From NCBI GenBank assembly GCA_001804285.1, contig MHFR01000016.1, positions 13,975-77,974 of the forward strand: 64,000 nt of DNA. The letters are read 5' to 3'. Made by a program: the position numbers and the translations under genes. Positions 1 to 53,346 of this stretch are shown here, in pieces (within the stretch, counting starts at the first letter, position 1; the number at the start of each line of letters is the position of its first letter). The stretch comes from Candidatus Danuiimicrobium aquiferis (GTDB lineage: Bacteria > Omnitrophota > Omnitrophia > Omnitrophales > Danuiimicrobiaceae). The notes beneath the pieces were generated by a model. It was not told the DNA's origin. It searched no databases and saw nothing but the letters and a program-made list of their open reading frames with translations.

Positions 1-3000
1 GAGTTTTCCACGAATTTGTCGGCGAACGTGCGCGCGCCTTTTTGAAAGAACGGATTGACTGGGACATGAATATCGCGGAGCCGCTCGCCGCGCAGGATTG
101 GGTCAGCCGCATGAGCGTGTTAGTCGCCCGGCATAAGGATTTGATTGTGTCTTCGATTAAGGATATTGCTGATCTTGATGACACGCACAAAGTCACTTTG
201 TCTCAGCTTGGCACGGAATGGGAAAGCGAGAAACTGTATCCCGTCTTCGACTGGGGCAGTAGTCCGAATCCTTACCGGAGAGACCTCATTCCGTTTCTTG
301 ACGTGTTCGGAAAAGAAAAATTAAGGTTTCGATTTTGGCGGCATGCGTTGCGCGCTTTGGATGCCGCGAAGGAATCGTATCAATTGTTAGGTGATGTGAT
401 TTGGGAAAAGTGGGCAGAAAATTTAATCAGGGAAGCGACCGATGCCGGTGAGAAAACCAAAATCATCGAACGGATCATTCGCGAAGCAGAACCGCTTGAG
501 GTGTTGAAAACATCGATAGAGACAAGGGAGATGCGCGAAGAAATTAAAAAGTTAAGTATTTTTCAATGGCCGAGCGAAATCTTGTCAACGATCGTCAAAC
601 ATCGTAAGGGACAGTTTGATTTTTACGGCATGTCGGAGAAGAGCCGCTGGACGCGAATGGTTGAGACCTATAGTTTGAGAGCAACATTAATGAGTTTAGG
701 GCTTGGAGTTTTCTTTTTGTTAATAAATTATTTGCTAACGCTAAGTAATTTCGGCGGCAGTTTAGTGTTTCGAATGATTGGCGAGTGGAGCGGCCTCGTC
801 ACACTCGTTTTCGCGTTTATCTTTGTCATGACGGGGGGGATTGTGCGTTTCGTTTTTTCGACAATCCTTCAACGGGATTGGAAAAGTTTGATGGGGTGGG
901 ATTTTATTATTTTGATACAGCGCCAGGCCAAAGATGCCCAGGCGCTTCTTGACGGGTTGTATCTTTCGGGCGACATGGACCGCGCGCATGATGACTTGTT
1001 TCTTGCAAAAAAGGAATTTTGGACTGAAACAGCGAGGTTTTTGACCCTTTTAGGGTTTGTTGGGATATGGATCGTTCCGGTGTTTGCAATGCAATTAGGT
1101 CTCTATCCATCGATGATGGTATTCGGGCCGGTAGCGCTTGTTCTGCCATTTATTATTATTGGGCTTCAGTATGGTAAGTTTTCGGCGATGCGGAAAGCGA
1201 GTCAAAAACTTGAAGCGATTCGCCGTGCCGACGAAGAGGCATCCGTCAATACCTTTAACGATACGCATCGCTCCGAAGTTCGCTTCAATACGCCCAAAAC
1301 GGGGACAGGTTCTGGATCAACGAAATCAGAACCTGTCCCCGTTTTGGGTAGCCTTTATCAAAGCGCGCAAGTGTCCTCGCAGTTTTTTGCGAGGGCCGAA
1401 GCGCGCCAGCTTGTGCGGTCACCAGTTACGAATCAGCAGAGAACGCAAAGCCTGTCATTCCCGCATGCCTTAAGCGGGAATCTACAGCCTTGGATCCCCG
1501 CTTCCGCGGGGATGACACAAAAACTACGTGCCGAAGTTCGGGCGGCGAGGAAACCGAAAATTGATTCGCAGGAAAAAGTCATGACGGCGATCGATCCGAA
1601 TACGCACACCATTTTTATCGAAGCGCGGAAGGAAATACTGGATCAATTCGTAGTGAATTTGGCCAAGCTGTTATCGATTTCGGTAGAGGCGTTGCCGGTT
1701 GACATTCAAAATTTCTTGGCTGGTTCATCCAAGTCACTTGAATTGGGAAACCATTACTTTTTGCGCCGGCTTTCTTCCCCGGCGGACGGTGAACTTGCAC
1801 GGTTTGTTTTCACTTACCACATGAACAATCTGGCGTACGGCCAACAGGAAATATTTGATCAAAATAAGATTTGGGAAACTACGCAGACTACTTTTAAGTC
1901 GGTTATCCGTGGGACGATCGGGAAAACTCGAAAACTGGTTGAGACGGTTGAAAAGCCTATTTCCGAAAGGCAATTTTCAAGGTGGCTGACGGGAAAAACT
2001 TCCGGTGAAGCGGAGACGGTTCGAAGAATTCGGGAGATGACTGAAAAAGCGGGCGTTCTGAGCGCACGCGGCGATTTTGATCAGGCGGAACGTTATTTTT
2101 ATAAGGCTTTGCAATTGATCGAGCGGCATTCAACCGTCGAGGATTTAATTTATAAGTTGCAAGCGGGTGACGACACTATTCCGGTGTTACTTTCGGGCGA
2201 AGACGGCCTTGTCCGTGGCTATCTTCGGCAATTTATGAAAGCTCCGGAAGAAGCGATTGAGGATTTGGATCGTGTTGTGGAGATCTTGGATATTGTGGAA
2301 ACCGAGTTTGTCCGAAATCCCGTAATGGACGCGAGCGTTTGGGTGCCATCACTGATTGCTGCATATGTCGAACTCGCAAAGGCCTGCATTCATGATGACA
2401 GGGTTCCTCCGGGATTGAACGCCGTACGCCGTGCGTTCGAGTTGGTGGAGCAATTTTTGGAAATTACGGAAGCATCGCCGGAAATTGCGACTCTTTTTCA
2501 GGTTTTGCTCGATGGGATCGAATCCATGTGGACCGTGCCGGCTTTTGAGAACAATGCGCTTTCACGGGATGAATTTATTGATGAACCGGTTGAAGCGATT
2601 CGTATCGGAAATCAGATTTTATCCGAAGAGAAATTCCAGGCCCAAGTTCATCCTGAGGCGGTGAAAAAATTCCGCCAGCTCGAAAAAGACGTCAATGACC
2701 GGTTGAAACAGCTACAAATGCAGTACGAGGCGAATTCGTTTGATTGGCGCAATTGGCTTACGGGGCCGGATTTTAATTTAAATCAAGCGGTGACGTTGCT
2801 TGCCAGCGGTCCGGAAGCGCAATACGGGCTTTTTCACTATATGGTGCATCCGCAGTTCCGGCAGGTATCTGTTGTCGGACAACAGCATGCATTTCGCGCG
2901 ATGGAGAGCTTGGTCCGGTCAGAGAGGATCCTTTTGAGCAACGATTATATGTGGGAGCGTTTAGAGGCGCTTGAATATGTGACAGACCGTTATGCCATGA

Positions 3001-6000
3001 AAGAGTTCAGTGAATTTGCAGACGCTGTGAGAGAGTGGCGGCGTCCGCGAGCAAGCCATCCAGCCGGAATTGTGTCTCAGCAAGCAGCCAAACGTTCTGA
3101 GGATGTGTTGCCAATTCCTATCAAGAGGTCTGCTGCTTTGGTGCGGCAGACAATAGCGCTTTTAGAGCGAAAGGACGTGGATGTGTTGGCCCAGTCAATC
3201 GCGCATGCAGCTTCCTTGATTCCGGTGCGTACGCGTGCGGTCAATCAGGAGGATGTCAGAAAATGGACTCATCAGCTCGAATATCCAAAATTCAGAAATC
3301 AAGCGGAGGCCTTGCTTGTCGCGCGCGCAAAAGAAGGAGACTCAATCAAACAGATAGCATACGAAGCTACATCGGCTTTGGGTAGCGATGGAATTGCTGC
3401 ATCTATCGCTGCGATTTTTCTTGAGCTTGCGAAAGTGAACCAACGAATCACTATCCGTGCGCTGGTAAGTGTGAGCCAAAACCGGCAGCTGGGTCAAGCA
3501 TCTTTAAGGCTGCTTCGATGGTTTTTTGAAGATGACGAAGATCGTGTCCTTGCGATTTTGCGAGATTTTGCTTCTCCAAGCGAAGAAAATCCGCTGCTTC
3601 GCGAAAAAGCAGGTCTAGTGTTGGCTCAGTTCGTGCGTTCCGAAGCGCGAAATACCGATTTGTCGAAGGGTGATGCGGGAGCGGGTAAGGAAGGGGCTGA
3701 TGAATTGGTCGTTCAAATTGCTCGGCTCGCACAAGAAATCCGTAATAGGATAGAGATATTTATAGTAGAGGATACGAATTTTGCATTTCAGGAGCAAGAG
3801 CTGGAGGCCATTCGCAATGCGATGATTCTACTTGAAAAACTTGAAAGACAATCTGGATGGAAATTAAAAAAATTGCCGCCGAAAACGGAAGTAGTGACAA
3901 GAAAATTTAATGAATTAACAGAACAAGTTAAGAAATACCGGATAGCACTTTTGGGAAGCACAGCGGATGAACAAGTAGCTATGGCTTTGCCCGGAAGCAA
4001 GTTGAGCATAGAGCAGCTGCCATGGGGGAATGGGTTTATTGCGCAAAGGTTAGAAGCGTTTAAGGGAACGCTACAAAAAAGAATGAACACAATTCGCGAA
4101 GCGACTCGGATTATCGGGGTTGGCTATTCCAGCCTTTATGGGTTTGTGAGAGACCATCCCGATGCGGCGGAGTTTTATCATATCCGACAACCAGTCCTCT
4201 CTCCTCGGAGGGGAAAGCCTTCCAACCGGGCCGAAGCGCGCCACTCTGAAAATAGTTCCAAGGAATTATTAACCAAAGCGCGCAAGAGTCCTCGCGATGC
4301 ACAAGAGGATGGAGCGAGGGCCGAAGTTCGCTTCGAAAAAGATAGTACAAAAGAGATGCTTTATCAAGGCGAACGAGTGTCTTCGATACGGTCCAATATG
4401 GATGTATCGAGGGCCGAAGTGCGCGCGAAGGGGAAAAGCGGGCAGCTTTTAGGAATCGTGGTCCGAGGCGAAGACTCACCTCTTTGGGGGCAGTTTCAAG
4501 CCGCTGTTATCGGGGCGCTTCAAGTGAAGAGAGTTCTTGAAATCACACCGGCCAATCTTGAAATTTTTCATTATTCGCCACTTGATGGTGAAATCGGGGT
4601 TCTGTCAGTGACGAACAACCACAAACAACACAACGATTCTGGCAGTGTTGCGTTGGTGACATATAGTCTGAGAGTTGAGCGGGCGAAGCATGCCTCTGCA
4701 AAAGGCGGAAGCCGTAAAATTCTTAAAATCTCAGGACAAGACACCGGTTCGAATTATCAGAGCCTCGGTATGATGCGCCTCTTTTACGCTTATTTAAGCG
4801 CGTTCCATGGCATCAATCGTTTTGTCATTGACGTTAATACCGCACCCCGATTTCTCAAACGGTTAAAAGCGCAAGGTTTCATCCTTTCAATCCGCCAAAA
4901 AGGTTTATTCACCACCGTTGATTTGAATCATGAAAAATTAGCCGCCGTACTCCGTGTGTCTAGAGCTGAAGCCCGAGATAAGGGTGTTAAAACAGCCAAA
5001 AAGAGAATGAATGAAGAGGCCAAACTTCGCCGTCGCGCGGGGCGTTTGCGCAGGAATATTTGGAACTGGATTGCGGAAAATCCGGTTGTGTTTAAACGGA
5101 CACGACAGAAATATGTTACCAATGCACTCGGCCGGTTCAGGAAATACATCGACGAAACGCACGTAAGATTTGAACGGAAATGGCTCGATTATTTAATCAA
5201 AAAAGAGGCAGAGGTGACTCGTGTTTCATTGCCGGATCAACGGATACTCAGAATGATTTTTATTCCTCTTCAATCATTTATTCCGTTTTTCGAAACGCAT
5301 CAATATCCGGACGGTGATACCAGAGGTTTCGGTTTTTTGGAGGTTAATAAACGCAGCATTGGTTCTGGATTTTATTCTTATTCCCGGACTACCGGGGATA
5401 TGATTATCGGATTTCGGATCTTTCAGGAATTCCGCGAAAAAAATAACAAAGAAGTTTTTAAGGCGTTTTTGAATGCGCTTCTTCGTAAATTTCATCCGAA
5501 AAGATTTGTTGTGCCGAACCAGCAAATACATAATGCTGACACATCGCCGGCAGCCACTCTTTTTTATCTTAAGAGTGGTTTTATCCCTTACGGCGTTTCC
5601 CATAAAATACAAGCATCGGTAGACATGCGTTTTGTGCAACTGATGGAAGGACAGCGCTTGAGTTTGAAAACGATCCGTTCTTTGCACGATCGAATAGAAA
5701 GACATATTACCTTCACCGAAAACCCTTGGCTTTATGAAGGCGTTTGGGTTTCTCCGTTGATAAAACCCAAGAACGGACGATCGGAAGTTCACTCGCAGCC
5801 TCTTATTGATCAGAATGATGCTGCGAGTACAGCTTGGCCCTTAACGGCGTCGACTGTGTCTCCGCCAAGGGCTGAAGCGCGGATTTTTCATTCCGGTATT
5901 TTAGACCGTGGATTTCAAACAGAACTTAACGGGAACCAAGTCTATATGAAGGGACTCGACCGCGTCGCGTCACATCTCCTTTTGCCGAAGCGGTCCGAAG

Positions 6001-9000
6001 CGCGGGCGGACCGGTATGGGATCGATTGGGATGCAGTCGCGCGCGGGCTGTCGACGCAGCTTAGGAACATTGAAACGTTTGTTGTTGAGGCGACCACGCG
6101 TAAAGAATGGGCCGAAGTCACGCGTGAAGTGGAAAAACTGATCAACACGTTCAAAAAAGGCGTGCAGTTTGCGCCAACGGAGGTATTAAAAGGCCCTTCC
6201 TATGAGCAACTTTTCTTTCGGCTAAACCGTGTGGTCAAAATAGTGGCCGAAGAAACGGCAAAGATGCTTGTATCCCGCATTAACTCGGATGTGCTTATCA
6301 TTCTGGCGCAGCTTTCGCTTATAGTATTTCTTTTCGCCTTGGTAAGTCTTCCTGTCGCGATCGGTTTGTCTGCGCTGCTTTCCATTGGTTCGGTTTTGGC
6401 TCTGACCGGTATCTTGCGCGATCAAAATATGCGTAAGGTAACAGCCTCATGGCTTGCTCAAAAGCAGCGGGACATCGACGATCTGGCCGCGAACGGGCGG
6501 AAAGAAGACGCTTTCAGAACTGAACGTTCCGAAGCGCGGACGGAAACAAGCGGACAACCCCAAAAGTTTTGGGTGCCACACCGTGTGTTGATTGTCGAAG
6601 ACGATGATGTTTCTGCGCGTTTTTATAAAGCACAAATAAGGGCGTTTTGGAATTTGAACGAAGATCAAATTGACATCGTCTCTTCTGGAGATGAGGCAGT
6701 TTTGCGTTTTTATCCTGAATATCCGGCGACCTATGATCTTCTCATACTAGATCATGATTTGCCGGGCGAAATCCATGGTAAGGATGTTTTAGCCCTGGCG
6801 CGGCTCAAATCTAAACAAACAATGATTGTCTTTAACTCAGCCAACAGTGTTGCGAGACAATCGGTAAGAGATTCCGGGCTGGCCGATCTGGTTGTGCCCG
6901 GAAAGATCGGCGTTGAAAAAGACTTGTCGGATCCAAAATCAGATATCAGCGTTTGGCTCCGTGAAACAAACAGCATTGCTTCCTCTCGGCGGTCCGAAGC
7001 ACGAAGTGAATTCCCATTAAATCAAGAAGAAGAACGGATTTTGCGCGAATTGGGAATGTCTGTTGATGAAAAAACAGGAAAACTTTTTTATATCGATAGA
7101 ACCGGTGAACCGAGAGTCGAACTCGAGGCAGATGTGTCAATTGTGCGGCACGGTGAAACTTTACTGATTGAACAAAGCAGAAAAGATGGGCTTCAGCGTT
7201 TTCAGGGAGCATTAGATGGCCCGGAGAATCAGCTCTCGGAAGAAGGAAAACGGCAGGCCGAAGAATCGGCATTGAAATTATATCAAGAGCTTATTGAAGA
7301 ACGGAAGCTTGATCCCCGTGAACTTATTCTTGTTTCAAGTCCATTGACAAGAGTGTTGGATACGCTGCAGGCTTTTATTGATCTTGTTAAGGAAAGAACC
7401 GGATATGAACTAAAAATAACGCGTGATGAAGAGCTCGAGCGCCTTGCTATCGAAATCAGTTTTGGCGCCTATGAAAATTTAACCGAACCGGAAATTCGCG
7501 CCATGGGCGAAAAAGATTATCAACTTGCCCGGGCGTTTCGAAACGGCCATGCGCTGGTTCGATTTCCGGCGGGAGAGAAACCGGGCGAAAGTTTCGTCCA
7601 GGATTTAGTCAGAGCGTATTATTTAACGAAATATATCAATGAACATTACCGCGGGAAACATGTTGTTCTTGGAAGCCACGGGACGACTTCTGGCGCGATG
7701 CGAGTCATTCAAAAAGATCCGGCCATGTTTAATGCCGATGGATTTGTTGATTGGCGAACGAATATGCTAAAGCCGGCTCAGGTCTTCCATTTATCGAAAA
7801 TGAGCCGCCGCGCTCCGTCTCAAAAAGGCTGGAGCGATAAAGAACTATTGGGATTAGCCAGAAGAGCGTGGAATCTCGGCTATCAGCCGGAAGAAAAATC
7901 CGAGCGGCCGGTTCCTGATGTTATGGGATTGATCGCGAAACAATTGGCCGTCGAAGATAATCAAAAAACCCGCCGACCGGAAGCACCTAACGAAATTGCC
8001 AGAGCCAATTCATCGGAGGGCATTCAACGACAGATTAAAGCAATTAATGATAGTCTGGTTAAGTTGAGGCGTATGGAACTTGACTTACTCACCCGGCTGC
8101 GTTATCCCACTGAACACACTTTTCCCTACTGGCGGAATATTTCGGAGAAAGAGTTGCGCGCAGAATTGGAAGCAGTCAGAGCACAAATTGCAAAATTAGA
8201 CACAACAGCAAATGCTCTGAGGGATAAACTCGGTCGTTCCGAAGTTCGCAACATTAATAATAGTTCCGGGTTCCGAGTTTCTGGTTCCGAGTTAAATTCA
8301 CAATTAGGAACTCGGGACTCGAAACTCAAAACTTCCGCCGAAGGCGGACGTGCCGAAGTGCGGCAGGTGAAACGGCTTGTCAATTTTAATCGCATTGTTG
8401 ATTATCTTAAGAAACAAAAAATATCACAACAGGCGCTTCATTATTTAAACGAAATGCGTTTTGATTTTCAAATTCATATGACCGACGAAAGTAATGTTTT
8501 GAAACGCTTTGATTTCTCTGCATTGGATGAGGAGGATCGTCTGGTTTTACAGGAAGCTCTGAACAAATGGGTAGAAATATTTCAACAATGCAAAGCTTAT
8601 ATTAATGGAGAGGCGTGGGTTAGATATTCTCGAGTCCTCGAGTTTCTTTTGGCGGAATATGGTGGCTTAGAGAAACTGAGAGGAAAAAAAGTGGTTGAGC
8701 TCGGGCCATCTGACCGGGATGGGCTCTTGCGGTTTTTGAAAGATTCCGGGATTGATTCAATAGGATACGATGTGAATCCTGCGGTTCAAAATGATTTAGT
8801 GAAACCGGCGGATTTTTTTCGGGTGGCTGAGGATTATGCGCCAAACACGGTCGAAGTTGTATTTAGTGTTGATTCATTAACGGTGCCGTATATGATCCAA
8901 GCGAGCGGATATAGCCGCAATGAAGTTTATCGCACGGAAAACATGAATCGCTTGATGAAAGATTTGAACAGAATGATGACCTCAACAGGAACAGTGATTT

Positions 9001-12000
9001 TTGAGATGGAGCCGGTTCAAGATTTGGATACGTCGGGTTTTGCAATCATTGAACAACCATTAATGGACCTTCGTGGATTTTGGGTTTTCAAAATACAACG
9101 TGCCGAAGTTCGCAACCTTGCAGACCAAAAAGGGGACAGGCATATGACTCCTGTTGAGCAATTGCCTGTCCCCTTTTTGGCTAATCAAGGCGAACGAGTG
9201 TCCTCGCAGCCTTTTGCGAGGGCCGAAGCGCGCGCGGAGAGTCAGCCATTTTTTGTCGAACGGAAGATGCCGTTCGTTGAGATGGTGCAAGCGCTGCCGG
9301 AACTCTCTGAAGAATTGAAAGCCCAATTTGATTATGCGCGTGCAATTTATTTTGGGGATAAAAATCGTGCGGCTGATTTATGGAAATCGCTGGCTGAACA
9401 TGGATATAAGCTCATCGGAGGGAAATGGTACGCCATGGTGTTTTCTGTCAAAATAACGCTGGCCGGGGCGAGTATTGAGCCACTTCAACCAGACAGCTTC
9501 TTCTCGCATCTTCAGGTGGTGTTGGGCCATGAACTCAAGCATCTGGATCCTGCTTTGGCCATGAAGCTGTATGAGCATCTCGGATACTTTTTTTCAAATA
9601 TGAAAGTTGATCCGAGAATTCTCCCGACGGTATTTGATCTGGATTTGAGCCGCGCCTACTATTCCGAAGGCACACTTCCGGACGGAAAAGTTTTAACGCA
9701 TGTTATATTCCCTAACACCATTAACAGAAGCGTGTCAACGTCCGATTATGTGAGCGAATTTTTCTTTGTGGATGGTGTGTTCTATGCGTATGGAGCCATG
9801 CATGACTTTTGGTCGAATGCTGAGTTGGAAGAAAGCTTTTCAGTGCTTGAAGCAGAAAATGGAAATGCGATTGGACGTGGCGTTCCTCACCTTGCCCGTG
9901 ATGTATATGAAGCGCGTCTCAAAACCATTTTGAAAATTCTGCCGGGCCGGGTGGTGCGAGTTCCGTCGGCACAATTCTCTCTGAAAGCAGACGGGCACAG
10001 CGCGCTTATTTTTTATCTCAAACTCGGGTTTCGCCCGCGGCCTTTGCCGGAGGATATTGACTTGAGAAGCAAAGTTGATGACTGGATGGCAAAGCTTGAT
10101 AGCGATCCAAAACTCCGTATTCCCGAGCGTGAAATCGAACGGTTTTTATTGCGCATGGGAGAAAAAAACCTGTATTACATTCCGCCGGAAATGTTGAGAA
10201 GGGCCGAAGCGCGCTTGAATTCGGTTAATTCAACCACTGCCCTATCGCAACTATTAAATAAAAAGGATTTATTGAATGAAGCGATAGGACTGTCATGGCT
10301 TCCGATAAATATGTTTTCACATAGTCAATGGAAAGCCATGGCTGCTTCGGGCGATGCATTGAGGCATCGCTCCGAGCTGCGAGCGGGGTTACCCGAATTG
10401 AATGGAGAAATTCCGGGCGAGTTTACGCCGAAACAAGTTGCGCGGAAAATCCGGCAATTTTCAAAACAAGCTTTTGAGGAGAAGGAGCGCGGTAAAAAGT
10501 TCAACCTTGTTTTGACACAAACGGAAGAACAGCTTCCGGAAGAAGTGACGGTGACGGCGAGAAATTTAGATGCGCGTATGAGACGAGTGAACCGATTTTT
10601 AGCAGGATTTCCGAAGGGATACAGGTTTAAACTTTACTTCGTCAACGCTCAAATTCCCGTATTGATAGTGTCTCAAGCTCAAGAAATTCCAGCTGGCGCT
10701 ATTGTCAAAGCAGACGTTTTAATGAATAAGTTAAAACATGCGAATGATGCACTCGTCAATATCATGATGACATTAAATCAAAGTAAAAATCTAGTGACGA
10801 AAGGAAATTTAACGCATCTTCGAAGGCAACTCGCAATTGTGAGACAAATATATGATGACCAAGAAGGAATGTTAAAAAAAGAATTTCAGAAAGCCTATGC
10901 AAATGCAGATAAAACTGACTTTTTGCTTATGTTTATGTTGGCTGGTGCGCTCAAAGCTGTGGCGCACATTGTCGATCAAGGAAGCCCGAAATTACCCCAA
11001 CCTGTGAATTTTACAAATTTGTTGCAGTCATTAATGCCCATGACGAAAGCATTCGATTATCCGATACAGGTTACGGATGACACCTCAATTTTAAATCGCT
11101 CCGAAGTACGACTTATGCAACCGATGATGGAAAATGCAGCTGAAATGAAAACCGCTCGACCGAGCGCGACTCAACCGAGCAGTGTGGAACAATTGGAAAA
11201 TGCGAGGGATTATTTGAATCCGGCTTTAAGTTCGAGCCGGGTGACGCGTTTCGCTAAATCGGGAATTGAAGCGCCAACAACATCTTCGACGGCTACAAGG
11301 CGTGTTTCAACAGAAATTAATCGTTCTTCGACCCCACCAAGACGCTCTTTAACTTCATCCATATCTGTACGAAGCGCACCCAAGCCTTCAGCAACAACCC
11401 GAAAATCACTTTTGAGATCTTCAACTAATACACCAACTTCACGTGCGGTAAAATCTGACGTCATGGCAATAACACCTTCTCTTTCTGCGGGAGACCGAAA
11501 TTTAGCAGACAAACCGGAAGTTGTCAATATAAATCAAGATCATAATAATATTGAGTTTAAATCAACGGTAGAGATTCCCACATTGCCTCGCAATGACGAA
11601 CGATTGATCTCTGATTCCTCAATTAACCAAGCTGCCGATCATGTGGCGCTTGCGATTGCGCCGGAATCGGTTTCGTTGAATCCGGGAGACGAAATCCAGC
11701 CGGCGGACGTTCAGCGGGAACTGGTGATATTAAAGGAAGTTGATGTTGATGTGTTCAGTGAAAAACTTCGCGCTGCAGTCATTAAAAAATTGAAAGAACT
11801 CAATCCACAGGTTGACGTTGAAATTGTTGATCCTGAAATCGTGAAACAGTTAACGGGAAACTGGATCGACTTACTCGCGGAAAAATTGAGCGGCAAATTA
11901 TCGATTGCATTTGAAATGAGCGGTCAGTTGACGGTGGATAAAATAGTTGAAGCGTTTCAAGCTGAAGGCTTTCGCGGACGGATCAAAAATTTGATTCTGA

Positions 12001-12464
12001 CCGGTGAGCGCGTTAATTTGACTCCGGATCAGCGGAAAACGATTGGGCTGCCGGTGATGTTGAGAAATCAAGTGGATTTCAGAAGATTAAATCCGGAACG
12101 GGTGCTGAGTCAAAGCGTTCTTCCGGTTGTGAGTAAAAACCCCGAATTTCAATTAGGCCCGAACAATCCCGGCTTTTTGGAAGTTGGGGTCGACACCAAC
12201 CGGGTTGATTCCGATCCGTATCTTGAGCTAACAGAATCAGTGCTTCAAATTGTAATCGGTTTATTAGCTGCAGAGAAAATTAAAAAAGTGAAAGATCTCA
12301 CAATCGAGCAAATCAGAGCCGAGCTTTTGAAGGATTTATTTATCGGATACGGAAGCCGGGAAGATATTGTCCGCATTGATCAAGGGCGGCTGATTATTTC
12401 AAGGTTGGCGCTGAGGCTCTTTTTGGAACACGAAATGACGAAACGGGTGGAGATGTCGGCGTAA
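1..12464 (+). CDS. Giant multidomain membrane protein, 5'-partial (open to the window edge). It has N-terminal and mid-protein transmembrane clusters, a CheY-like receiver domain, a histidine-phosphatase (RHG...SHG) domain and a class-I methyltransferase-like segment.
   Basis: A single stop-free frame runs from nt 3 to 12464 (more than 4150 codons), which cannot occur by chance at this GC. Its amino-acid composition is protein-like over almost its whole length. Recognisable motifs: receiver 'VLIVEDD...LLILDHDLPG...K', 'RHGET' and 'GSHGT', 'VVELGPSDRDG'. Hydrophobic helices lie at about nt 680-1190 and 6280-6420. The frame stays open upstream of the track's TTG at 42, so the gene continues beyond the window. 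Confidence 0.7.
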   Translation, partial: VFHEFVGERARAFLKERIDWDMNIAEPLAAQDWVSRMSVLVARHKDLIVSSIKDIADLDDTHKVTLSQLGTEWESEKLYPVFDWGSSPNPYRRDLIPFLDVFGKEKLRFRFWRHALRALDAAKESYQLLGDVIWEKWAENLIREATDAGEKTKIIERIIREAEPLEVLKTSIETREMREEIKKLSIFQWPSEILSTIVKHRKGQFDFYGMSEKSRWTRMVETYSLRATLMSLGLGVFFLLINYLLTLSNFGGSLVFRMIGEWSGLVTLVFAFIFVMTGGIVRFVFSTILQRDWKSLMGWDFIILIQRQAKDAQALLDGLYLSGDMDRAHDDLFLAKKEFWTETARFLTLLGFVGIWIVPVFAMQLGLYPSMMVFGPVALVLPFIIIGLQYGKFSAMRKASQKLEAIRRADEEASVNTFNDTHRSEVRFNTPKTGTGSGSTKSEPVPVLGSLYQSAQVSSQFFARAEARQLVRSPVTNQQRTQSLSFPHALSGNLQPWIPASAGMTQKLRAEVRAARKPKIDSQEKVMTAIDPNTHTIFIEARKEILDQFVVNLAKLLSISVEALPVDIQNFLAGSSKSLELGNHYFLRRLSSPADGELARFVFTYHMNNLAYGQQEIFDQNKIWETTQTTFKSVIRGTIGKTRKLVETVEKPISERQFSRWLTGKTSGEAETVRRIREMTEKAGVLSARGDFDQAERYFYKALQLIERHSTVEDLIYKLQAGDDTIPVLLSGEDGLVRGYLRQFMKAPEEAIEDLDRVVEILDIVETEFVRNPVMDASVWVPSLIAAYVELAKACIHDDRVPPGLNAVRRAFELVEQFLEITEASPEIATLFQVLLDGIESMWTVPAFENNALSRDEFIDEPVEAIRIGNQILSEEKFQAQVHPEAVKKFRQLEKDVNDRLKQLQMQYEANSFDWRNWLTGPDFNLNQAVTLLASGPEAQYGLFHYMVHPQFRQVSVVGQQHAFRAMESLVRSERILLSNDYMWERLEALEYVTDRYAMKEFSEFADAVREWRRPRASHPAGIVSQQAAKRSEDVLPIPIKRSAALVRQTIALLERKDVDVLAQSIAHAASLIPVRTRAVNQEDVRKWTHQLEYPKFRNQAEALLVARAKEGDSIKQIAYEATSALGSDGIAASIAAIFLELAKVNQRITIRALVSVSQNRQLGQASLRLLRWFFEDDEDRVLAILRDFASPSEENPLLREKAGLVLAQFVRSEARNTDLSKGDAGAGKEGADELVVQIARLAQEIRNRIEIFIVEDTNFAFQEQELEAIRNAMILLEKLERQSGWKLKKLPPKTEVVTRKFNELTEQVKKYRIALLGSTADEQVAMALPGSKLSIEQLPWGNGFIAQRLEAFKGTLQKRMNTIREATRIIGVGYSSLYGFVRDHPDAAEFYHIRQPVLSPRRGKPSNRAEARHSENSSKELLTKARKSPRDAQEDGARAEVRFEKDSTKEMLYQGERVSSIRSNMDVSRAEVRAKGKSGQLLGIVVRGEDSPLWGQFQAAVIGALQVKRVLEITPANLEIFHYSPLDGEIGVLSVTNNHKQHNDSGSVALVTYSLRVERAKHASAKGGSRKILKISGQDTGSNYQSLGMMRLFYAYLSAFHGINRFVIDVNTAPRFLKRLKAQGFILSIRQKGLFTTVDLNHEKLAAVLRVSRAEARDKGVKTAKKRMNEEAKLRRRAGRLRRNIWNWIAENPVVFKRTRQKYVTNALGRFRKYIDETHVRFERKWLDYLIKKEAEVTRVSLPDQRILRMIFIPLQSFIPFFETHQYPDGDTRGFGFLEVNKRSIGSGFYSYSRTTGDMIIGFRIFQEFREKNNKEVFKAFLNALLRKFHPKRFVVPNQQIHNADTSPAATLFYLKSGFIPYGVSHKIQASVDMRFVQLMEGQRLSLKTIRSLHDRIERHITFTENPWLYEGVWVSPLIKPKNGRSEVHSQPLIDQNDAASTAWPLTASTVSPPRAEARIFHSGILDRGFQTELNGNQVYMKGLDRVASHLLLPKRSEARADRYGIDWDAVARGLSTQLRNIETFVVEATTRKEWAEVTREVEKLINTFKKGVQFAPTEVLKGPSYEQLFFRLNRVVKIVAEETAKMLVSRINSDVLIILAQLSLIVFLFALVSLPVAIGLSALLSIGSVLALTGILRDQNMRKVTASWLAQKQRDIDDLAANGRKEDAFRTERSEARTETSGQPQKFWVPHRVLIVEDDDVSARFYKAQIRAFWNLNEDQIDIVSSGDEAVLRFYPEYPATYDLLILDHDLPGEIHGKDVLALARLKSKQTMIVFNSANSVARQSVRDSGLADLVVPGKIGVEKDLSDPKSDISVWLRETNSIASSRRSEARSEFPLNQEEERILRELGMSVDEKTGKLFYIDRTGEPRVELEADVSIVRHGETLLIEQSRKDGLQRFQGALDGPENQLSEEGKRQAEESALKLYQELIEERKLDPRELILVSSPLTRVLDTLQAFIDLVKERTGYELKITRDEELERLAIEISFGAYENLTEPEIRAMGEKDYQLARAFRNGHALVRFPAGEKPGESFVQDLVRAYYLTKYINEHYRGKHVVLGSHGTTSGAMRVIQKDPAMFNADGFVDWRTNMLKPAQVFHLSKMSRRAPSQKGWSDKELLGLARRAWNLGYQPEEKSERPVPDVMGLIAKQLAVEDNQKTRRPEAPNEIARANSSEGIQRQIKAINDSLVKLRRMELDLLTRLRYPTEHTFPYWRNISEKELRAELEAVRAQIAKLDTTANALRDKLGRSEVRNINNSSGFRVSGSELNSQLGTRDSKLKTSAEGGRAEVRQVKRLVNFNRIVDYLKKQKISQQALHYLNEMRFDFQIHMTDESNVLKRFDFSALDEEDRLVLQEALNKWVEIFQQCKAYINGEAWVRYSRVLEFLLAEYGGLEKLRGKKVVELGPSDRDGLLRFLKDSGIDSIGYDVNPAVQNDLVKPADFFRVAEDYAPNTVEVVFSVDSLTVPYMIQASGYSRNEVYRTENMNRLMKDLNRMMTSTGTVIFEMEPVQDLDTSGFAIIEQPLMDLRGFWVFKIQRAEVRNLADQKGDRHMTPVEQLPVPFLANQGERVSSQPFARAEARAESQPFFVERKMPFVEMVQALPELSEELKAQFDYARAIYFGDKNRAADLWKSLAEHGYKLIGGKWYAMVFSVKITLAGASIEPLQPDSFFSHLQVVLGHELKHLDPALAMKLYEHLGYFFSNMKVDPRILPTVFDLDLSRAYYSEGTLPDGKVLTHVIFPNTINRSVSTSDYVSEFFFVDGVFYAYGAMHDFWSNAELEESFSVLEAENGNAIGRGVPHLARDVYEARLKTILKILPGRVVRVPSAQFSLKADGHSALIFYLKLGFRPRPLPEDIDLRSKVDDWMAKLDSDPKLRIPEREIERFLLRMGEKNLYYIPPEMLRRAEARLNSVNSTTALSQLLNKKDLLNEAIGLSWLPINMFSHSQWKAMAASGDALRHRSELRAGLPELNGEIPGEFTPKQVARKIRQFSKQAFEEKERGKKFNLVLTQTEEQLPEEVTVTARNLDARMRRVNRFLAGFPKGYRFKLYFVNAQIPVLIVSQAQEIPAGAIVKADVLMNKLKHANDALVNIMMTLNQSKNLVTKGNLTHLRRQLAIVRQIYDDQEGMLKKEFQKAYANADKTDFLLMFMLAGALKAVAHIVDQGSPKLPQPVNFTNLLQSLMPMTKAFDYPIQVTDDTSILNRSEVRLMQPMMENAAEMKTARPSATQPSSVEQLENARDYLNPALSSSRVTRFAKSGIEAPTTSSTATRRVSTEINRSSTPPRRSLTSSISVRSAPKPSATTRKSLLRSSTNTPTSRAVKSDVMAITPSLSAGDRNLADKPEVVNINQDHNNIEFKSTVEIPTLPRNDERLISDSSINQAADHVALAIAPESVSLNPGDEIQPADVQRELVILKEVDVDVFSEKLRAAVIKKLKELNPQVDVEIVDPEIVKQLTGNWIDLLAEKLSGKLSIAFEMSGQLTVDKIVEAFQAEGFRGRIKNLILTGERVNLTPDQRKTIGLPVMLRNQVDFRRLNPERVLSQSVLPVVSKNPEFQLGPNNPGFLEVGVDTNRVDSDPYLELTESVLQIVIGLLAAEKIKKVKDLTIEQIRAELLKDLFIGYGSREDIVRIDQGRLIISRLALRLFLEHEMTKRVEMSA
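1268..1406. repeat. In-frame palindromic insert module bounded by ccgaagttcgc and ggccgaagcgcgc. It has a 20-bp stem (cccaaaacggggacagg / cctgtccccgttttggg) and a gcgcgcaagtgtcctcgc / gcgagggccgaagcgcgc hairpin.
   Basis: Inverted repeats read directly from the sequence; translated as ...RSEVR...ARAEAR... Confidence 0.7.
1452..1519. repeat. MITE family B copy (tgtcattcccgc...gcgggaat / ggatccccg...cggggatgaca) lying in-frame inside the giant ORF.
   Basis: Near-identical to the intergenic copy at 17495-17567. Translated in-frame as SLSFPHALSGNLQPWIPASAGMTQK. Confidence 0.75.
4228..4426. repeat. Composite in-frame repeat module: three tandem ggccgaag[ct]gcgc units, each with a caa[ag]gcg..gtcctcgc hairpin arm.
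   Basis: Sequence repeats; translated RAEAR...ARAEVR...SRAEVR. Confidence 0.65.
6526..6575. repeat. In-frame module ccgaagcgcgg + ccccaaaagttttggg hairpin, immediately before the receiver domain.
   Basis: Shares the motif and the palindrome with the module at 1268. Confidence 0.55.
8235..8364. repeat. In-frame module bounded by cgttccgaagttcgc and gtgccgaagtgcgg, with ccgagtt / aactcgg and ccgccgaaggcgg palindromes.
   Basis: Sequence repeats; translated RSEVR...RAEVR. Confidence 0.6.
9098..9237. repeat. In-frame module with the same architecture as 1268-1406: ccgaagttcgc, a ccaaaaaggggacaggc / gcctgtcccctttttgg stem, then gtcctcgc..gcgagggccgaagcgcgc.
   Basis: Aligns along its whole length with the module at 1268-1406. 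Confidence 0.7.
10201..10290. repeat. In-frame module gggccgaagcgcgc + ttgaattcggttaattcaa palindrome + ccctatcgc / gcgataggac hairpin.
   Basis: Read directly from the sequence. Confidence 0.5.
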
Positions 12465-14056: not shown

Positions 14057-16681
14057 ATGAAGGGACATTCAATGCGGCGCGGTCTCTTTGTTGTGATAAC
14101 CGCGGTTTTTATTGTGGTTGTCATTTTTTTCTTTGCGCTTCCGTTTGTTGTTCGTCCTGCATTTTTACAAAATCTCATTCGAGAGCGGGTGGAAGCCCGT
14201 CTTGGGTTGACGCCTTCCTTTCAAACTTATCGGGTTTCTTTATGGCCGCTTCCCGTGTTGCATTTTAATGTATGTAAGCTAACCAATTCTCAAGAGCGCA
14301 ATGCCCTGCCGGTTTTGGAAGCGGAACGCGTGAGTTTTCGGCCGAGCATTCTTCCGCTTTTTGGGGGACGCGTCGAATTTGCCCAAATTTCATTAGTTAA
14401 TTCTAAAATCCGTTTTCCGCTCCGGATATTTGATAAGAAATTAGACAAGCAACTCGTTCTGGAAAATATTTCATTAAATTTATGGAATGTCCGCTCTCGT
14501 AACCGTGTCCGGTATAATTTGCAGGGAAAAATGTGGAGCGGCATTGATAATATTCGATCGAAAGGGGAGTTTCAATTTGACTTTGACAAATTCGATTTGA
14601 AAGACCTTTTCTTCGAAAGCGATTTTTCGATAGAAAAAATAAAGTGGCAGAAATGGGTTGAATGGTTTGGTGTGTTGCCGATAGACCTTCTCGATGGAGA
14701 ATCTTCGTTGATGGGAAGGGTGAAGAAAAGTCCGGGGAGCAAAGCGTTTACGATCGACGGGCTTGGGCAAGTGAAGAATATGGTTTATCAATCCAAAGAT
14801 AAACTCACCAAAAGTTATCCTACCGATTACGATATTCAAGCACAGGCCGAGTTTGATGTGGAAAAAGGTTTTGTAAGGCTAAAGGATGGCATCTTGAACG
14901 CGCCTTTTACAAAAAAAATTCAAGTAAGCGGAAAATTTATTTATGGCACCGGTGTGTTCGAGGAATTGTTATTAAAAGCCGAATCGCTCCGGTTTGATTT
15001 GCTCCCGCTCCACATTCTTTCTTTTGCGGATATATTTCCCGTGAACCTGGGGCTTTCCGGCGAAAGCGGATTGGATTGTTATGTGAAAGGGAATTTAGCG
15101 GAGCTATCCATTAATGCGCATCTTGATTTAACAAAAAACGTCGTGAATTATTCGACTTATTTTTCGAAACCGGCGGATACGCCTCTTATTTTGGGGTGGG
15201 ATTTGAAATTGTTTTTAGGTCGCTTGCTCAGAGGAGATTTTTCTATTAATTTTGATAAAGCTTCGGCGAAAGGGTCCCTTGTTGATTTTGATTTGCGGAG
15301 TTCGACGGGCGAAATGACAGTAATGACGAATAATTTTATAGTTGATGGCTGGCAAAAATATTTTCCATCAATTCAAAATGTTGAATTTACAGGTGGGCTA
15401 AAAGTCTTTTCCAGTGCCAAAGGAAATTTTAAGGAAATCTCAAAACTAAAGTGCATGAACAATCTTACTTTTTCAGATGTGAACGTGAAGGCAGCCAATG
15501 GTGCATTGCTTGAAAAATTAAACGGCTTGATTGACTTCGGCCCTTTTGAAGCGGAAATGAAAGATGTGAAGTTTAACATGGGCGGGGCATCTTTTGCGAT
15601 GCAGGGAAAAATGCTGCGGCAAGTTGACGCGACGTGGCTTTTTCAGATTGATTCGGAACAATTTCACATGATCAAGTTGATTGATCAAGCCGAGAAAATA
15701 TCAAATGCGATTCAATTATTTGGCAAAACGAAATGGGATTCCGTACCGATTCAAAATTCGCTGCGCGAATGGCTTGCGGGCGGTGACATATTTGATCGCT
15801 TAAGCGTTCAGGTTGGATATCGGCCGGGACAGCTTGGGATTCCGGAAGCGCATTTTGATGCTTACGGAGGAACGGTTTCGGGAAAAGCGCTTTTTGAGCT
15901 TGCCGCGGAAAAACCATCTTCAAAATTTGAATTGCAGTTTGAAAAGCTTAATTTGGTACGGATGCAGGGTGAAAAAGAAAACCTGCTTGTCGAAGGAAAT
16001 TTGTTTGGAGCGGCGCATTTTGCAAGTGATGGGCCGTTTGATGCCGGATGGCTTGACCGGTTAAAAGGAGAAGGAACGGTTGGCGTGACAAACGGGGAGT
16101 TCCGGACATTTGATCTTGTGGGCGAATTGGGGAAAATCGCGGAACTTGCGATGCTTCTAAATTACGGGACCAAAACAACAAAATTTAATGATGTACGTTG
16201 CGTTTTTTCGATCGGCGATAAAAAAGCTTCGTCCAAAGATATTTTTCTTGTTTCCGACGACCTTGAAATTAATGGAGAAGGGGATATCGATTTCAGCGGC
16301 AATTTAAATACGCGGCTTTCGATTTATTTAATGCCGTCGATGGGCGGGAAGGTGACGAATAAAATTAGCCAGGATGACCGTCTTGGGCCGATTCCTCTGT
16401 TGCTTACGGGGACGCTTAAGAAACCGATGATTCAAAAAGATGCCATCGCGCTTCAAACTTTTCTTGATCTATTTTCGCAAGGACAATTTTCGAAGATTGT
16501 TTCGGCCATTACGCGAAAGCGATTACCGAAAAAAGAATCCGCCGAAACAAAAGATGCATCAAATTCTTCAGGTAAGAAGAAAGAAAATCAACCCGCCGCT
16601 TCTGAGCTTACTCAACAAATCTTAGATACCGGATTTGGACTTCTCGATCAGTTTCTTGCGAAGCGGGGAACCGCTTCTTAA
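14057..16681 (+). CDS. AsmA-family outer-membrane biogenesis protein-like (N-terminal transmembrane anchor, 874 aa)
   Basis: N-terminal transmembrane helix followed by a long beta-rich periplasmic region; overall resemblance only. Confidence 0.55.
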   Translation: MKGHSMRRGLFVVITAVFIVVVIFFFALPFVVRPAFLQNLIRERVEARLGLTPSFQTYRVSLWPLPVLHFNVCKLTNSQERNALPVLEAERVSFRPSILPLFGGRVEFAQISLVNSKIRFPLRIFDKKLDKQLVLENISLNLWNVRSRNRVRYNLQGKMWSGIDNIRSKGEFQFDFDKFDLKDLFFESDFSIEKIKWQKWVEWFGVLPIDLLDGESSLMGRVKKSPGSKAFTIDGLGQVKNMVYQSKDKLTKSYPTDYDIQAQAEFDVEKGFVRLKDGILNAPFTKKIQVSGKFIYGTGVFEELLLKAESLRFDLLPLHILSFADIFPVNLGLSGESGLDCYVKGNLAELSINAHLDLTKNVVNYSTYFSKPADTPLILGWDLKLFLGRLLRGDFSINFDKASAKGSLVDFDLRSSTGEMTVMTNNFIVDGWQKYFPSIQNVEFTGGLKVFSSAKGNFKEISKLKCMNNLTFSDVNVKAANGALLEKLNGLIDFGPFEAEMKDVKFNMGGASFAMQGKMLRQVDATWLFQIDSEQFHMIKLIDQAEKISNAIQLFGKTKWDSVPIQNSLREWLAGGDIFDRLSVQVGYRPGQLGIPEAHFDAYGGTVSGKALFELAAEKPSSKFELQFEKLNLVRMQGEKENLLVEGNLFGAAHFASDGPFDAGWLDRLKGEGTVGVTNGEFRTFDLVGELGKIAELAMLLNYGTKTTKFNDVRCVFSIGDKKASSKDIFLVSDDLEINGEGDIDFSGNLNTRLSIYLMPSMGGKVTNKISQDDRLGPIPLLLTGTLKKPMIQKDAIALQTFLDLFSQGQFSKIVSAITRKRLPKKESAETKDASNSSGKKKENQPAASELTQQILDTGFGLLDQFLAKRGTAS

Positions 16682-17494: not shown

Positions 17495-17567
17495 TGTCAT
17501 TCCCGTAAGCTTTAAGCGGGAATCCAGAAAAACATGGATCCCCGATAAAAACATTCGGGGATGACAA
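17495..17567. repeat. MITE family B copy (two gtcattcccg..cgggaat / ggatccccg..cggggatgaca hairpins)
   Basis: Inverted repeats in the sequence; intergenic between rnc and argC. Confidence 0.75.
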
Positions 17568-17709
17568 ATTAGTAATTGTCAAAGAGTTGTGATTATTACG
17601 CCATAAAAAGTGCAGAACTCAAGTTAAATGATTAATCACTATTGGTAATAAAGATATCGGATTCCTCTGGTTTTTTTAATTTCATTTACAATAAAAAAGA
17701 GTATTTCTT

Positions 17710-17816
17710 TAGCGTTTTGAAGTTGACAGGACTCCAATACCCTTCCGCCAAACAGCGCGTCGGATCCGCCTCTGACGGAAACCCTCTCCCTCAGGGAGAG
17801 GGCAGGGGTGAGGGCG
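17710..17816. repeat. Family A element (tagcgttttgaagttgac ... ccctctccctcagggagagggcaggggtgagggc)
   Basis: The same module recurs at 21186-21268 and 44351-44452. Confidence 0.6.
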
Positions 17817-17876
17817 ATTTCAGTCATTTGATATCTGATAATTTTGATACAGAAACAAATAATCCGTGAGGTTTTT

Positions 17877-20181: not shown

Positions 20182-20209
20182 TGTCATCCCCGCGAAAGCG
20201 GGAATGACA
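20182..20209. repeat. MITE family B single hairpin (tgtcatccccgcgaaagcgggaatgaca)
   Basis: Palindrome in the sequence. Confidence 0.65.
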
Positions 20210-21127: not shown

Positions 21128-21320
21128 GGTCACTAGTCACCGGACACTGGTTACTATGTTCTGTTGACATTTAGTGTTCTCATTCCTTCTCCCTTTTGGG
21201 GAGAAGGTTAGGATGAGGGGGAATTTCAATCCCTCACCCTATCCCTCTCCCACAGGGAGAGGGGAAAGTATGTAAATATCAGCAGAACATAGTGAATAAA
21301 TGAGAAACCAGTGACTGGTG
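21128..21320. repeat. 193-bp palindromic element with 35-bp terminal inverted repeats (ggtcactagtcaccggacactggttactatgttctg / cagaacatagtga...ccagtgactggtg) enclosing ccttctccc/gggagaagg and ccctctccc/gggagaggg hairpins
   Basis: Inverted repeats read from the sequence; lies between argB and argD. Confidence 0.7.
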
Positions 21321-21345: not shown

Positions 21346-22533
21346 ATGAAAACCAAAGAAGTTCAGGAACAATATAATCAATATGTGCTTCCGACTTACA
21401 CGCGGGTTTCGATGTGTATTGTCAAGGCAAAGGGCCTTAAGGTTTGGGATATCGAAGGGAAAGAGTATCTCGATTTTTTTTCGGGTTGGGCGGTTTCCGG
21501 ACTCGGGCACTGCCATCCGGCTGTTGTCAATGCGATTAAGAATCAGATCCGGAAAGTGATTCATATTCCAAACAATTTCTATGGTATCAAACAAGGTCAG
21601 CTTGCGGAGAAAATTATTCAGCATTCATTTCCGGGGCGTGTTTTCTTTTGCAACAGCGGAGCGGAAGCGAATGAGGGCGCGATTAAATTTGCGCGACGGT
21701 ACGGATCTCTTTCCGGGCGTTATGAAATTGTGACGATGAAAAATTCGTTTCACGGAAGAACATTGGGTGCGCTTGCCGCGACGGCACAGGAAAAATATCA
21801 AAAAGGGTTTAATCCGCTGCTTGAGGGATTTAAATATGTTCAACTGAATGATTTCGAAGCGCTCCAAAAAGTGGTATCGGATAAGACTGTTGCGATTATT
21901 TTGGAGCCGATTCAGGGCGAAGGCGGAGTGAATATTGCCGATGTCGATTATATCAAACGCCTCCGGACATTTTGTGATGACCGGAAGATACTGCTTATTT
22001 TCGATGAAGTTCAAACCGGTATGGGGCGGACGGGATATTGGTTTGCCTTTCAGCATTATGGAATAGAACCAGACTTGATGACGCTTGCGAAATCGCTTGC
22101 AAATGGCGTTCCGATCGGCGCGTTGGTGGTGAACCGGAGGATTAAAGAGGAAGTTTTAGTCGCCGGGACGCATGCGTCGACATTCGGTGGAAATCCGTTG
22201 GCAACAGCAGCAGGACTTGCGGTTTTTAAGGCGATTGAGGAGGGTGGATTGCTCACTCGCGCGAAAGAAATGGGTGAATATTTGCGGGCGGGTCTTGAGA
22301 AAATAAAACAAAAGCATCCGGCTGTCATTAAAGAAATCCGGGGGATGGGGCTGATGCTTGGCGTTGAACTGCATGTACCGGGGTCCGATATTGTGAATCG
22401 CGCGCGGGAAGCGGGTCTCCTGATTAATTGTACGCAGGACAAGGTGCTTCGGATTATTCCGGCGATGACGATTACGAAACGGCAGGCTGATCAGGGACTC
22501 GACATCTTAGATCAAGTGTTAGCATCTGTTTAG
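21346..22533 (+). CDS. argD: Acetylornithine aminotransferase
   Basis: Class-III aminotransferase with the PLP-lysine region FDEVQTGMGRTG. ATG at 21346 has a Shine-Dalgarno sequence. Confidence 0.9.
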   Translation: MKTKEVQEQYNQYVLPTYTRVSMCIVKAKGLKVWDIEGKEYLDFFSGWAVSGLGHCHPAVVNAIKNQIRKVIHIPNNFYGIKQGQLAEKIIQHSFPGRVFFCNSGAEANEGAIKFARRYGSLSGRYEIVTMKNSFHGRTLGALAATAQEKYQKGFNPLLEGFKYVQLNDFEALQKVVSDKTVAIILEPIQGEGGVNIADVDYIKRLRTFCDDRKILLIFDEVQTGMGRTGYWFAFQHYGIEPDLMTLAKSLANGVPIGALVVNRRIKEEVLVAGTHASTFGGNPLATAAGLAVFKAIEEGGLLTRAKEMGEYLRAGLEKIKQKHPAVIKEIRGMGLMLGVELHVPGSDIVNRAREAGLLINCTQDKVLRIIPAMTITKRQADQGLDILDQVLASV

Positions 22534-22540
22534 CGCTTTG

Positions 22541-42600: not shown

Positions 42601-42615
42601 GGAATGAACGGAATT

Positions 42616-53238: not shown

Positions 53239-53252
53239 GACGCAAATAGTGA

Positions 53253-53303: not shown

Positions 53304-53346
53304 GCCATCTGCTACGTAAATTGCTACGTAGAAAAAGGAGAAAACG

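Follow-up and report, generated by a model that had tools for sequence, protein, structure and literature searches.

How does a short repeat that otherwise lies between genes come to stand inside a giant open reading frame (ORF), and what kind of element is it? This question is raised by a stretch of 64,000 nucleotides from Candidatus Danuiimicrobium aquiferis (Omnitrophota; GenBank assembly GCA_001804285.1, contig MHFR01000016.1, positions 13,975 to 77,974 of the forward strand), referred to below as the window. An earlier reading of the letters and their translations (the sequence-only reading) had described, within a giant ORF, a pair of hairpins that it regarded as a miniature inverted-repeat transposable element (MITE). 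The results below indicate that the unit of this element corresponds to a published type of hairpin, the Neisseria Transformation Sequence/Ssn-related motif (NTS/SRM), and that the copy in the ORF is probably a selfish, non-coding doublet of such hairpins that was inserted in frame and is tolerated in a linker of the predicted protein.

Structure and setting of the hairpin doublet in the giant ORF

The giant ORF (>4,153 codons, positions 3-12464, forward strand) continues beyond the 5' end of the window; within the window, a single frame remains open from the start up to the stop codon at 12462-12464. The predicted product has transmembrane segments at approximately residues 231-390, a hydrophilic linker at approximately residues 400-530 and a His_Phos_1 domain at residues 2380-2564. 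The element (1453-1517, forward strand) is placed in this linker, in which disorder-promoting residues are abundant, between the membrane-type segments and the next domain. In its immediate setting (1392-1541, forward strand), RAEAR codons (1392-1406) and RAEVR codons (1527-1541) flank it on either side, and an in-frame ATG is located downstream at 1580.

Measured between its terminal inverted repeats (TIRs), the element spans 65 nt and consists of two hairpins arranged tail to tail. Its left part is composed of TGTC, ATTCCCGC (1457-1464), a 9-nt loop and GCGGGAAT (1474-1481). After a 12-nt spacer between the two hairpins, the right part is composed of ATCCCCGC (1494-1501), the loop TTCC, GCGGGGAT (1506-1513) and GACA. 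The 12-nt TIRs, TGTCATTCCCGC and GCGGGGATGACA, differ by one mismatch. The stems of both units are perfect over 8 bp, with GTC upstream and C downstream in each. The left unit (1453-1485, forward strand) carries the 5' GTC flank and a C right after the palindrome, and the right unit (1487-1517, reverse strand), which reads TGTCATCCCCGC-GGAA-GCGGGGATC on the minus strand, has the same architecture. The predicted fold of the element strand has a free energy of -34.8 kcal/mol (z = -5.2 relative to shuffles), and the strand can fold in two ways, as a pair of neighbouring hairpins or as a single long, nested one. The hairpin strings quoted in the sequence-only reading were located at 1453-1481 and 1492-1519 and had no match in 100 dinucleotide-preserving shuffles.

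Codons 1452-1517 (LSFPHALSGNLQPWIPASAGMT) are translated in frame as (L)SFPHALSGNLQPWIPASAGMT. The element contributes 22 amino acids and introduces neither a stop nor a change of frame; four of the six frames are open across it. The description of a hairpin pair inside the giant ORF that is translated without a stop was therefore borne out, with exact strings, a correct peptide and a frame that remains open to 12462-12464. The tryptic peptide of the giant-ORF product that corresponds to the element would be TQSLSFPHALSGNLQPWIPASAGMTQK. When codon usage was scored with the housekeeping genes of the window as training set, the giant-ORF frame scored best on both sides of the element and fell to approximately 0 across 1351-1576, element included.

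An independent contig from a JGI metagenome (L001; 3300009296, Ga0103681_1131959; 1,118 bp) showed 99.7% DNA identity to window positions 924-1612, with an identical element, and reached approximately 530 nt upstream and 95 nt downstream of it. Only bases 316-1003 of this contig match the window, and its unrelated sequence at both ends marks it as chimeric. The chimeric breakpoints lie elsewhere than at the element, and L001 independently supports that the junctions of the element are real.

Assignment of the unit to the NTS/SRM hairpins

NTS was recently described as a sequence of 28 nt (CGTCATTCCCGCGMAVGCGGGAATCYRG) that contains dRS3, together with a broader motif, SRM, with the degenerate form HGTCWYN(0-2)YYVSBRHN(0-5)WNVSBRGN(0-2)RNCYNB (PMC11893778, Nat Commun 2025). 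For the small GIY-YIG nuclease SsnA, the NTS hairpin is a substrate only as single-stranded DNA, both in binding and in cutting; GTC just upstream of the palindrome is critical for cleavage and C just after it for binding (PMC11893778). Such hairpins typically flank ssn genes, and SRM-rich genomes, among which Rickettsia is listed, usually encode an Ssn; in N. meningitidis, 2% of NTS are inside genes (PMC11893778).

Judged by its letters, the unit of the element is a hairpin of this published type, GTCAT-YCCCGC-loop-GCGGGRAT-C, and the element in the ORF is a tail-to-tail doublet of SRM-type hairpins. The degenerate SRM motif was matched by its left unit (1453-1485) and by the left unit of an intergenic copy (17495-17527), relative to an average of 0.18 matches per window in Markov simulations, and the right unit (1487-1517) deviated from the motif at one position. 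The properties expected of an SRM were found in the element, namely a hairpin-forming inverted repeat of 20-50 nt, oriented 5' GTC, with C directly 3' of the palindrome, and the many, dispersed and mostly intergenic copies expected of such a motif were found in the family of the window. The strict 28-nt Neisseria consensus had no match at up to four mismatches, because the loops are longer here.

In common with NTS/SRM, the family shows GTC, AT-YCCCGC, a loop, GCGGGR-AT and C, many dispersed, mostly intergenic copies across many phyla and, in related Omnitrophota DNA, small GIY-YIG genes that are flanked by hairpins like the published ssn genes. It differs in that the window element is a fixed tail-to-tail doublet with a 9-nt loop and that the window holds no ssn gene. 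The main text of PMC11893778 mentions neither in-frame read-through nor Omnitrophota nor Patescibacteria; its text was not specifically searched for doublets. With Neisseria dRS3 (ATTCCC-N8-GGGAAT), the palindromic core ATTCCC...GGGAAT is shared, and the right unit has the N8 spacing. However, the left unit has N13 between its half-sites and the right unit carries ATCCCC/GGGGAT, which separates the element from dRS3; moreover, the lineage differs, and no sign of phage-attachment use was seen in the window element.

Related copies in the window

The window contains five doublets, plus single-hairpin and degenerate copies. At least seven members of the repeat family were found in the 64 kb, all but one in spacers, and they sit in spacers of the arg/dap cluster or beside other genes. 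Four copies listed in the sequence-only reading, at 17495, 23641, 27769 and 32232, are real and align module for module with the doublet in the ORF. That account required amendment in that the copy at 23641 is reversed and has a degenerate end, that three of the four carry an insert of approximately 45 nt, and that further copies exist. Pairwise divergence among the copies is 10-30%.

The short doublet at 17495-17566 (forward strand), in the rnc-argC spacer, has a left unit that matches the SRM motif and shares 90% identity with the left unit of the element. The three long forms, each with an insert of approximately 45 nt nested in one loop, are located at 23641-23745 (reverse strand; argF-argG spacer; far end degenerate), at 27769-27878 (forward strand; lysA-dapF spacer) and at 32232-32340 (forward strand), the last immediately ahead of an ORF for a secreted protein of 1,5xx residues, the likely start of which it overlaps. 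A minimal single hairpin, TGTCATCCCCGCGAAAGCGGGAATGACA, is present in the argJ-argB spacer (20182-20209) and a degenerate one, TGTCATACCCGC...GCAGGCATGACA, in the argD-argF spacer (22564-22597), both without an assigned strand; 42580-42616 is perhaps a further degenerate copy. Searches of Rfam yielded no relevant family, the only matches being sub-threshold, miRNA-like ones to a neighbouring perfect palindrome.

The nested inserts of the long forms (23660-23735, 27785-27828 and 32248-32292) contain two mini-hairpins, CCCTCG..CGAGGG and CCCTG..CAGGG, and nested inserts in SRM loops are also present in two Saccharibacteria loci (L023 and L037). The copy at 32232-32340 ends in ATGACA, which provides an in-frame ATG just before a signal-peptide-like N-terminus, MTQVLGICKIFFSVQCLLTLFCACVLTFFAPLAVHA, of an ORF that ends at 36948 (region 32232-32400). 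This copy may donate the start codon of that ORF or occupy its ribosome-binding region.

Distribution across genomes and association with GIY-YIG genes

A pattern built from one complete unit and the inner half of the other was scanned on one genome per GTDB species and matched at least 117 genome stretches. Among the matches listed, doublets were found in Omnitrophota (many), Patescibacteria (candidate phyla radiation, CPR), Elusimicrobia, Nitrospirota and Planctomycetes, and further carriers included several proteobacterial classes, Coxiellaceae, Rickettsiaceae, Leptospiraceae and others. The notion of a repeat of this particular genome was therefore too narrow, as the same doublet occurs in many phyla. 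The closest copy to the doublet in the ORF among the matches listed was intergenic (89% identity over 66 nt) and came from Omnitrophica bacterium RIFCSPLOWO2_01_FULL_50_24 (locus L044).

Covariation was analyzed in 63 complete doublets from the fetched loci (L002-L118) and the window. Watson-Crick pairing was kept within each hairpin (T-A or C-G) in 59 of these, and 73% of the 63 combined one ATTCCCG/CGGGAAT hairpin with one ATCCCCG/CGGGGAT hairpin. Doublets with two ATCCCC-type hairpins were absent (0 of 63), and both variable positions covaried inside a hairpin. This covariation supports the individual hairpin, rather than terminal-repeat pairing, as the selected unit.

Small GIY-YIG ORFs (PF01541, E of approximately 1e-16) were detected adjacent to elements, or with elements on both sides, in one locus of Omnitrophota (L003:7260-7550) and in loci L107, L070 and L060. 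In the Omnitrophota locus (L003:6680-7630), tandem blocks of approximately 110 nt hold one doublet each, and the GIY-YIG gene lies between a disrupted hairpin and a complete doublet, an arrangement that resembles the SRM-ssn-SRM order of the 2025 paper (PMC11893778).

In-frame copies in other genes

That the repeat family can colonise coding sequence, as the sequence-only reading had concluded from the copy in the giant ORF, was confirmed by in-frame copies in other genomes. In the fetched loci, 17 of 132 elements (13%) were located inside an ORF that extends for 80 codons or more in both directions, relative to 46% of random positions. Some of the 17 spanning ORFs are spurious antisense ORFs; at least eight cases are sound. 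A deltaproteobacterial UvrB aligned to PDB entry 2fdc (E = 1e-262) with the residues of the element as a clean extra segment, and a full-length LeuRS spans its own copy of the doublet in a similar manner. Pfam domains surround the doublet in two more class I aminoacyl-tRNA synthetases, an AddA-like helicase-nuclease (Omnitrophota), Mfd and a reverse transcriptase. The doublets in genes are located at L025:5938-6001, L092:5917-5961, L048:3541-3582, L063:6837-6876, L073:1811-1876, L108:854-897 and L098:7013-7070, and their hosts are Deltaproteobacteria, CPR, Omnitrophota and Planctomycetes-type genomes.

Doublets within ORFs are read in all three frames, and the peptides that recur are SFPx...AGMT, VIPAKAGIQ...GSPIKTFGDD and CHPRExGNP...DPRLRGDD. 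Open frames make up 42% of the total in the family, compared with 32% for random 65-mers, and the doublet family is in this respect somewhat ORF-friendly.

In their behaviour, which alone was compared, these copies resemble Rickettsia palindromic elements (RPEs), which likewise are palindromic, insert in frame and add a short tolerated peptide, often in loops or linkers; RPEs measure approximately 100-150 bp and were defined in Rickettsia, whereas the window element measures 65 nt. The repeats of Rickettsia also start with GTCAT. RPEs were described by Ogata et al. (2000; as summarised in PMC10969869), and in-frame insertion has also been described for some other MITEs. With the REP/BIME/REPIN-RAYT systems, the family shares short hairpin units in inverted doublets, as is seen in its tail-to-tail structure, a dispersed occurrence in spacers and a presumed mode of processing in which a domesticated nuclease or transposase acts on the single-stranded hairpin. 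In contrast to REP/RAYT, the genes seen beside elements here are of the GIY-YIG type and not a HUH/Y1 RAYT, and the 5' tetranucleotide of REP (GTAG-type) is absent.

Interpretation of the copy in the giant ORF

The sequence of the element, the membership of its hairpin unit in the family, the uninterrupted frame and the presence of the same doublet in frame in conserved genes elsewhere were all directly observed. Together they make it likely that the copy in the giant ORF is an in-frame insertion of a selfish NTS/SRM doublet. The family, which mostly fills short spacers between housekeeping genes in this Omnitrophota chromosome, would in this case have placed one copy in a giant multi-domain ORF, at a point where the N-terminal membrane-spanning part of the product is joined to the next domain by a linker that is hydrophilic and not conserved. 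Because the G+C-rich stems are free of stops in four of six frames and the insert does not shift the frame, the ribosome would be able to read through it and add 22 tolerated residues. These residues presumably have no function of their own. The family would spread as single-stranded DNA hairpins, on which a small GIY-YIG Ssn nuclease of the cd10448 type, with its gene in another part of the genome, would act, in parallel to REP/RAYT and IS200/IS605; Ssn is put forward here as a candidate enzyme for mobility, and the 64-kb window itself holds no ssn gene. An in-frame, tolerated insertion is an ordinary event that is already known for palindromic repeats, and no new mechanism is established by it.

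Several observations weigh against this interpretation. The giant ORF is, as a translated gene, a prediction. No GIY-YIG gene, RAYT or transposase was detected in the 64-kb window with phmmer, a small HMM and Pfam on all larger ORFs, and transposition driven by Ssn, or behaviour like that of an insertion sequence (IS), is in PMC11893778 a hypothesis only and has been demonstrated by nobody. The flanks of the five window doublets contain no direct repeats that would represent a target-site duplication, and the copies within ORFs share no common length class modulo 3; the boundaries of the mobile unit are accordingly defined neither by flanks nor by lengths. Finally, neither an orthologue nor a population variant without the insert was found in protein searches, in an empty-site search of JGI data or in a cluster look-up.

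The sequence-only reading had proposed a comparison with an orthologue that lacks the insert, and this comparison could not be made with protein collections or JGI metagenomes, neither of which contained one. A word-indexed protein search with residues 1-1000 of the giant protein gave no homologue, and an exhaustive HMMER search with residues 1-1200 against 1.84 billion representatives returned only P0001, a fragment derived from the chimeric contig L001. A DNA pattern for the empty site had no match in JGI metagenomes, and the cluster of the giant protein contained a single member. When the window and its proteins were compared by BLAST with all fetched loci, only the element itself or distant housekeeping homologues matched, and no record was found for the exact sequence of the protein that the window encodes at 14057-16681. 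We infer the insertion event, because an empty site was not available for comparison.

Among the alternatives, a classical MITE, that is, a deletion derivative of a DDE-transposase IS with TG...CA ends that is mobilised in trans and whose likeness to Ssn hairpins is incidental, is considered unlikely. The label used in the sequence-only reading is apt as far as it refers to small size, lack of coding capacity, multiple copies and TIRs, which measure 11-12 nt, start with TG and end with CA. It does not extend to the hallmarks of transposition: besides the missing target-site duplications, no parent IS and no transposase flanked by these ends was found in the window, and none was noticed in the fetched loci, which were searched for GIY-YIG genes and not systematically for transposases. 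Instead, small GIY-YIG genes adjoin the elements, the unit fits the published SRM motif, and the covariation favours individual hairpins over terminal-repeat pairing. ERIC, Correia and QMITE elements (PMC10969869, PMC5896051) are likewise small and non-autonomous, with TIRs, stable RNA folds and occasional intragenic copies; the window element, at 65 nt relative to 100-400 nt, differs from these in size and shows no TA or other target duplication, IHF site or known parent IS.

A second alternative, to which similarly little probability is assigned, is that the copy in the gene has been co-opted, either as a site for Ssn cleavage or for limiting recombination, or as a structure in the mRNA (-35 kcal/mol) at which ribosomes pause or a nuclease such as RNase III cuts, so that the upstream and downstream parts of the giant ORF are perhaps expressed or processed separately. 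The high stability of the hairpin is consistent with such a role, as is the presence in the linker of two other palindromic modules within 230 nt. In Neisseria, NTS repeats gather around genes for surface proteins and shorten recombination tracts (PMC11893778). Another giant ORF rich in R-x-E-x-R motifs, in locus L027, also carries an in-frame doublet. However, the doublet is absent from the giant ORFs of the same type in L124, L128 and L139, and no orthologues were found that could provide evidence of conservation. Copies within ORFs elsewhere occupy unrelated positions of unrelated genes, which fits chance insertion followed by tolerance.

An artefact of metagenome assembly, in which two genomic regions were joined at a shared copy of the repeat, is very improbable. 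The repeat is dispersed, the source is evidently a metagenome-assembled genome, and L001, the only other contig over the site, is itself chimeric at both ends. Against such a join, the element is just 65 nt long and its copies are 10-30% divergent, the two flanks share frame, coding signal and the rare R-x-E-x-R motif style, and L001 crosses the element at 99.7% identity with its chimeric breakpoints outside it. That no insertion occurred, and that ancestral coding sequence came to resemble the repeat by chance or convergence, would accord with the missing empty site but can practically be dismissed in view of the 89% identity over 66 nt to an intergenic copy of another genome, the 90% identity of the left unit to the copy at 17495, the perfect 8-bp stems and the loss of codon-usage signal over exactly the stretch of the element.

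R-x-E-x-R modules and neighbouring palindromes

The insertion of the doublet had also been taken as support for an interpretation of the R-x-E-x-R modules that surround it, and this extension does not hold. All 19 R[AS]E[AVL]R motifs are in the frame of the giant ORF, with none in the other five frames and none in the remaining 52 kb, and their Arg codons vary (CGN, AGG and AGA). Because the two distributions differ, SRM hairpins being mostly intergenic and the modules being confined to the giant ORF and to one frame, the former cannot be used to explain the latter. Most of the motifs separate domain-sized blocks, often as pairs or triplets spaced by 30-40 residues, and they could mark processing sites or cassette boundaries of a mosaic protein. 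Peptide modules of the R-x-E-x-R type recur in giant ORFs of other assemblies. No literature on RSEAR/RAEAR motifs and palindromic linker modules was found.

The idea may still apply to one subclass, QVSS-x(5-9)-RAE[AV]R, which occurs at 1357-1406, 4272-4331, 4363-4424 and 9184-9233 and whose palindromic arms are conserved at the DNA level across genomes, although this is not demonstrated by the insertion of the doublet. These modules are imperfect DNA palindromes of the form GCGCGCAAGTGTCCTCG-loop-CGAGGGCCGAAGCGCGC. Near-identical arms, with differing loops and flanking protein, are present in other giant ORFs rich in R-x-E-x-R (L027:5208-5243 and 7116-7151, L124, L128:3429-3462 and 6279-6312, and L139:40-67), and the palindromes were met only within giant ORFs and always in the same frame. 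A pattern for the RAEAR hairpin gave 27 metagenome matches, mostly chance matches in high-GC DNA, of which only L124, L128 and L139 are real.

A second palindrome family of the giant ORF, CCAAAANGGGGACAGG...CCTGTCCCCNTTTTGG, is present at 1293-1348 and 9125-9180, with perfect arms of 22 and 18 nt and predicted energies of -45 and -40 kcal/mol, respectively. Each of its copies lies directly upstream of a QVSS...RAEAR module, forming a composite unit of approximately 140 nt that occurs twice (1269-1406 and 9099-9233). None of the 117 fetched genome loci showed this second family.

A more far-reaching proposal can be formulated, which we regard as doubtful. SRM doublets would then be pan-bacterial, RPE-like coding palindromes that are spread by Ssn-type GIY-YIG nucleases and repeatedly add 15-25 residues to essential proteins in more than ten phyla, including CPR. 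The giant R-x-E-x-R linkers of Omnitrophota, built from DNA-conserved hairpin modules (QVSS...RAEAR arms and GGGGACAGG palindromes), would be preferred sites of landing or recombination, and hairpin-mediated events would help to assemble mosaic giant genes.

Genomic background of the window

The window represents ordinary chromosome, with rplM-rpsI, rnc, arg and dap genes, uvrA, ftsH and hrcA-grpE-dnaJ. The named best relatives of its UvrA were all from Candidatus Omnitrophica (56-68% identity), in addition to one fragment with 97% identity. A probable integrated island at 53165-61530 comprises, after tRNA-Pro(GGG), a tyrosine integrase, a Schlafen/AlbA_2 protein and HsdR, HsdM and HsdS of a type I restriction-modification system. 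A separate intergenic repeat family, located at 17708-17820, 21185-21281, 22529-22650 and 44350-44458, has outer arms TTTAGCGTTTTGAAGT...ACTTCAAAATGCTAAA and a palindromic core of CCCTCTCCCTSAGGGAGAGGG followed by CAGGGGTGAGGG.

Implications

With the assignment, a repeat that is likely to be encountered often in the annotation of Omnitrophota and CPR genomes acquires a name and a published biochemical context, that of the Ssn nucleases and the hairpins they recognise; in translations it surfaces as odd peptides such as ...IPAxAGMT, ...GSPIKTFGDD and ...DPRLRGDD. It extends the 2025 work in that a family described as rarely intragenic is found, in frame, in conserved genes of many phyla. Two modest additions result, namely that the doublet form is widespread across phyla and that in-frame copies in conserved genes are commoner than the figure for Neisseria would suggest. 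For the giant protein of Candidatus Danuiimicrobium aquiferis, the 22 residues should be treated as derived from the repeat when the protein is compared or modelled.

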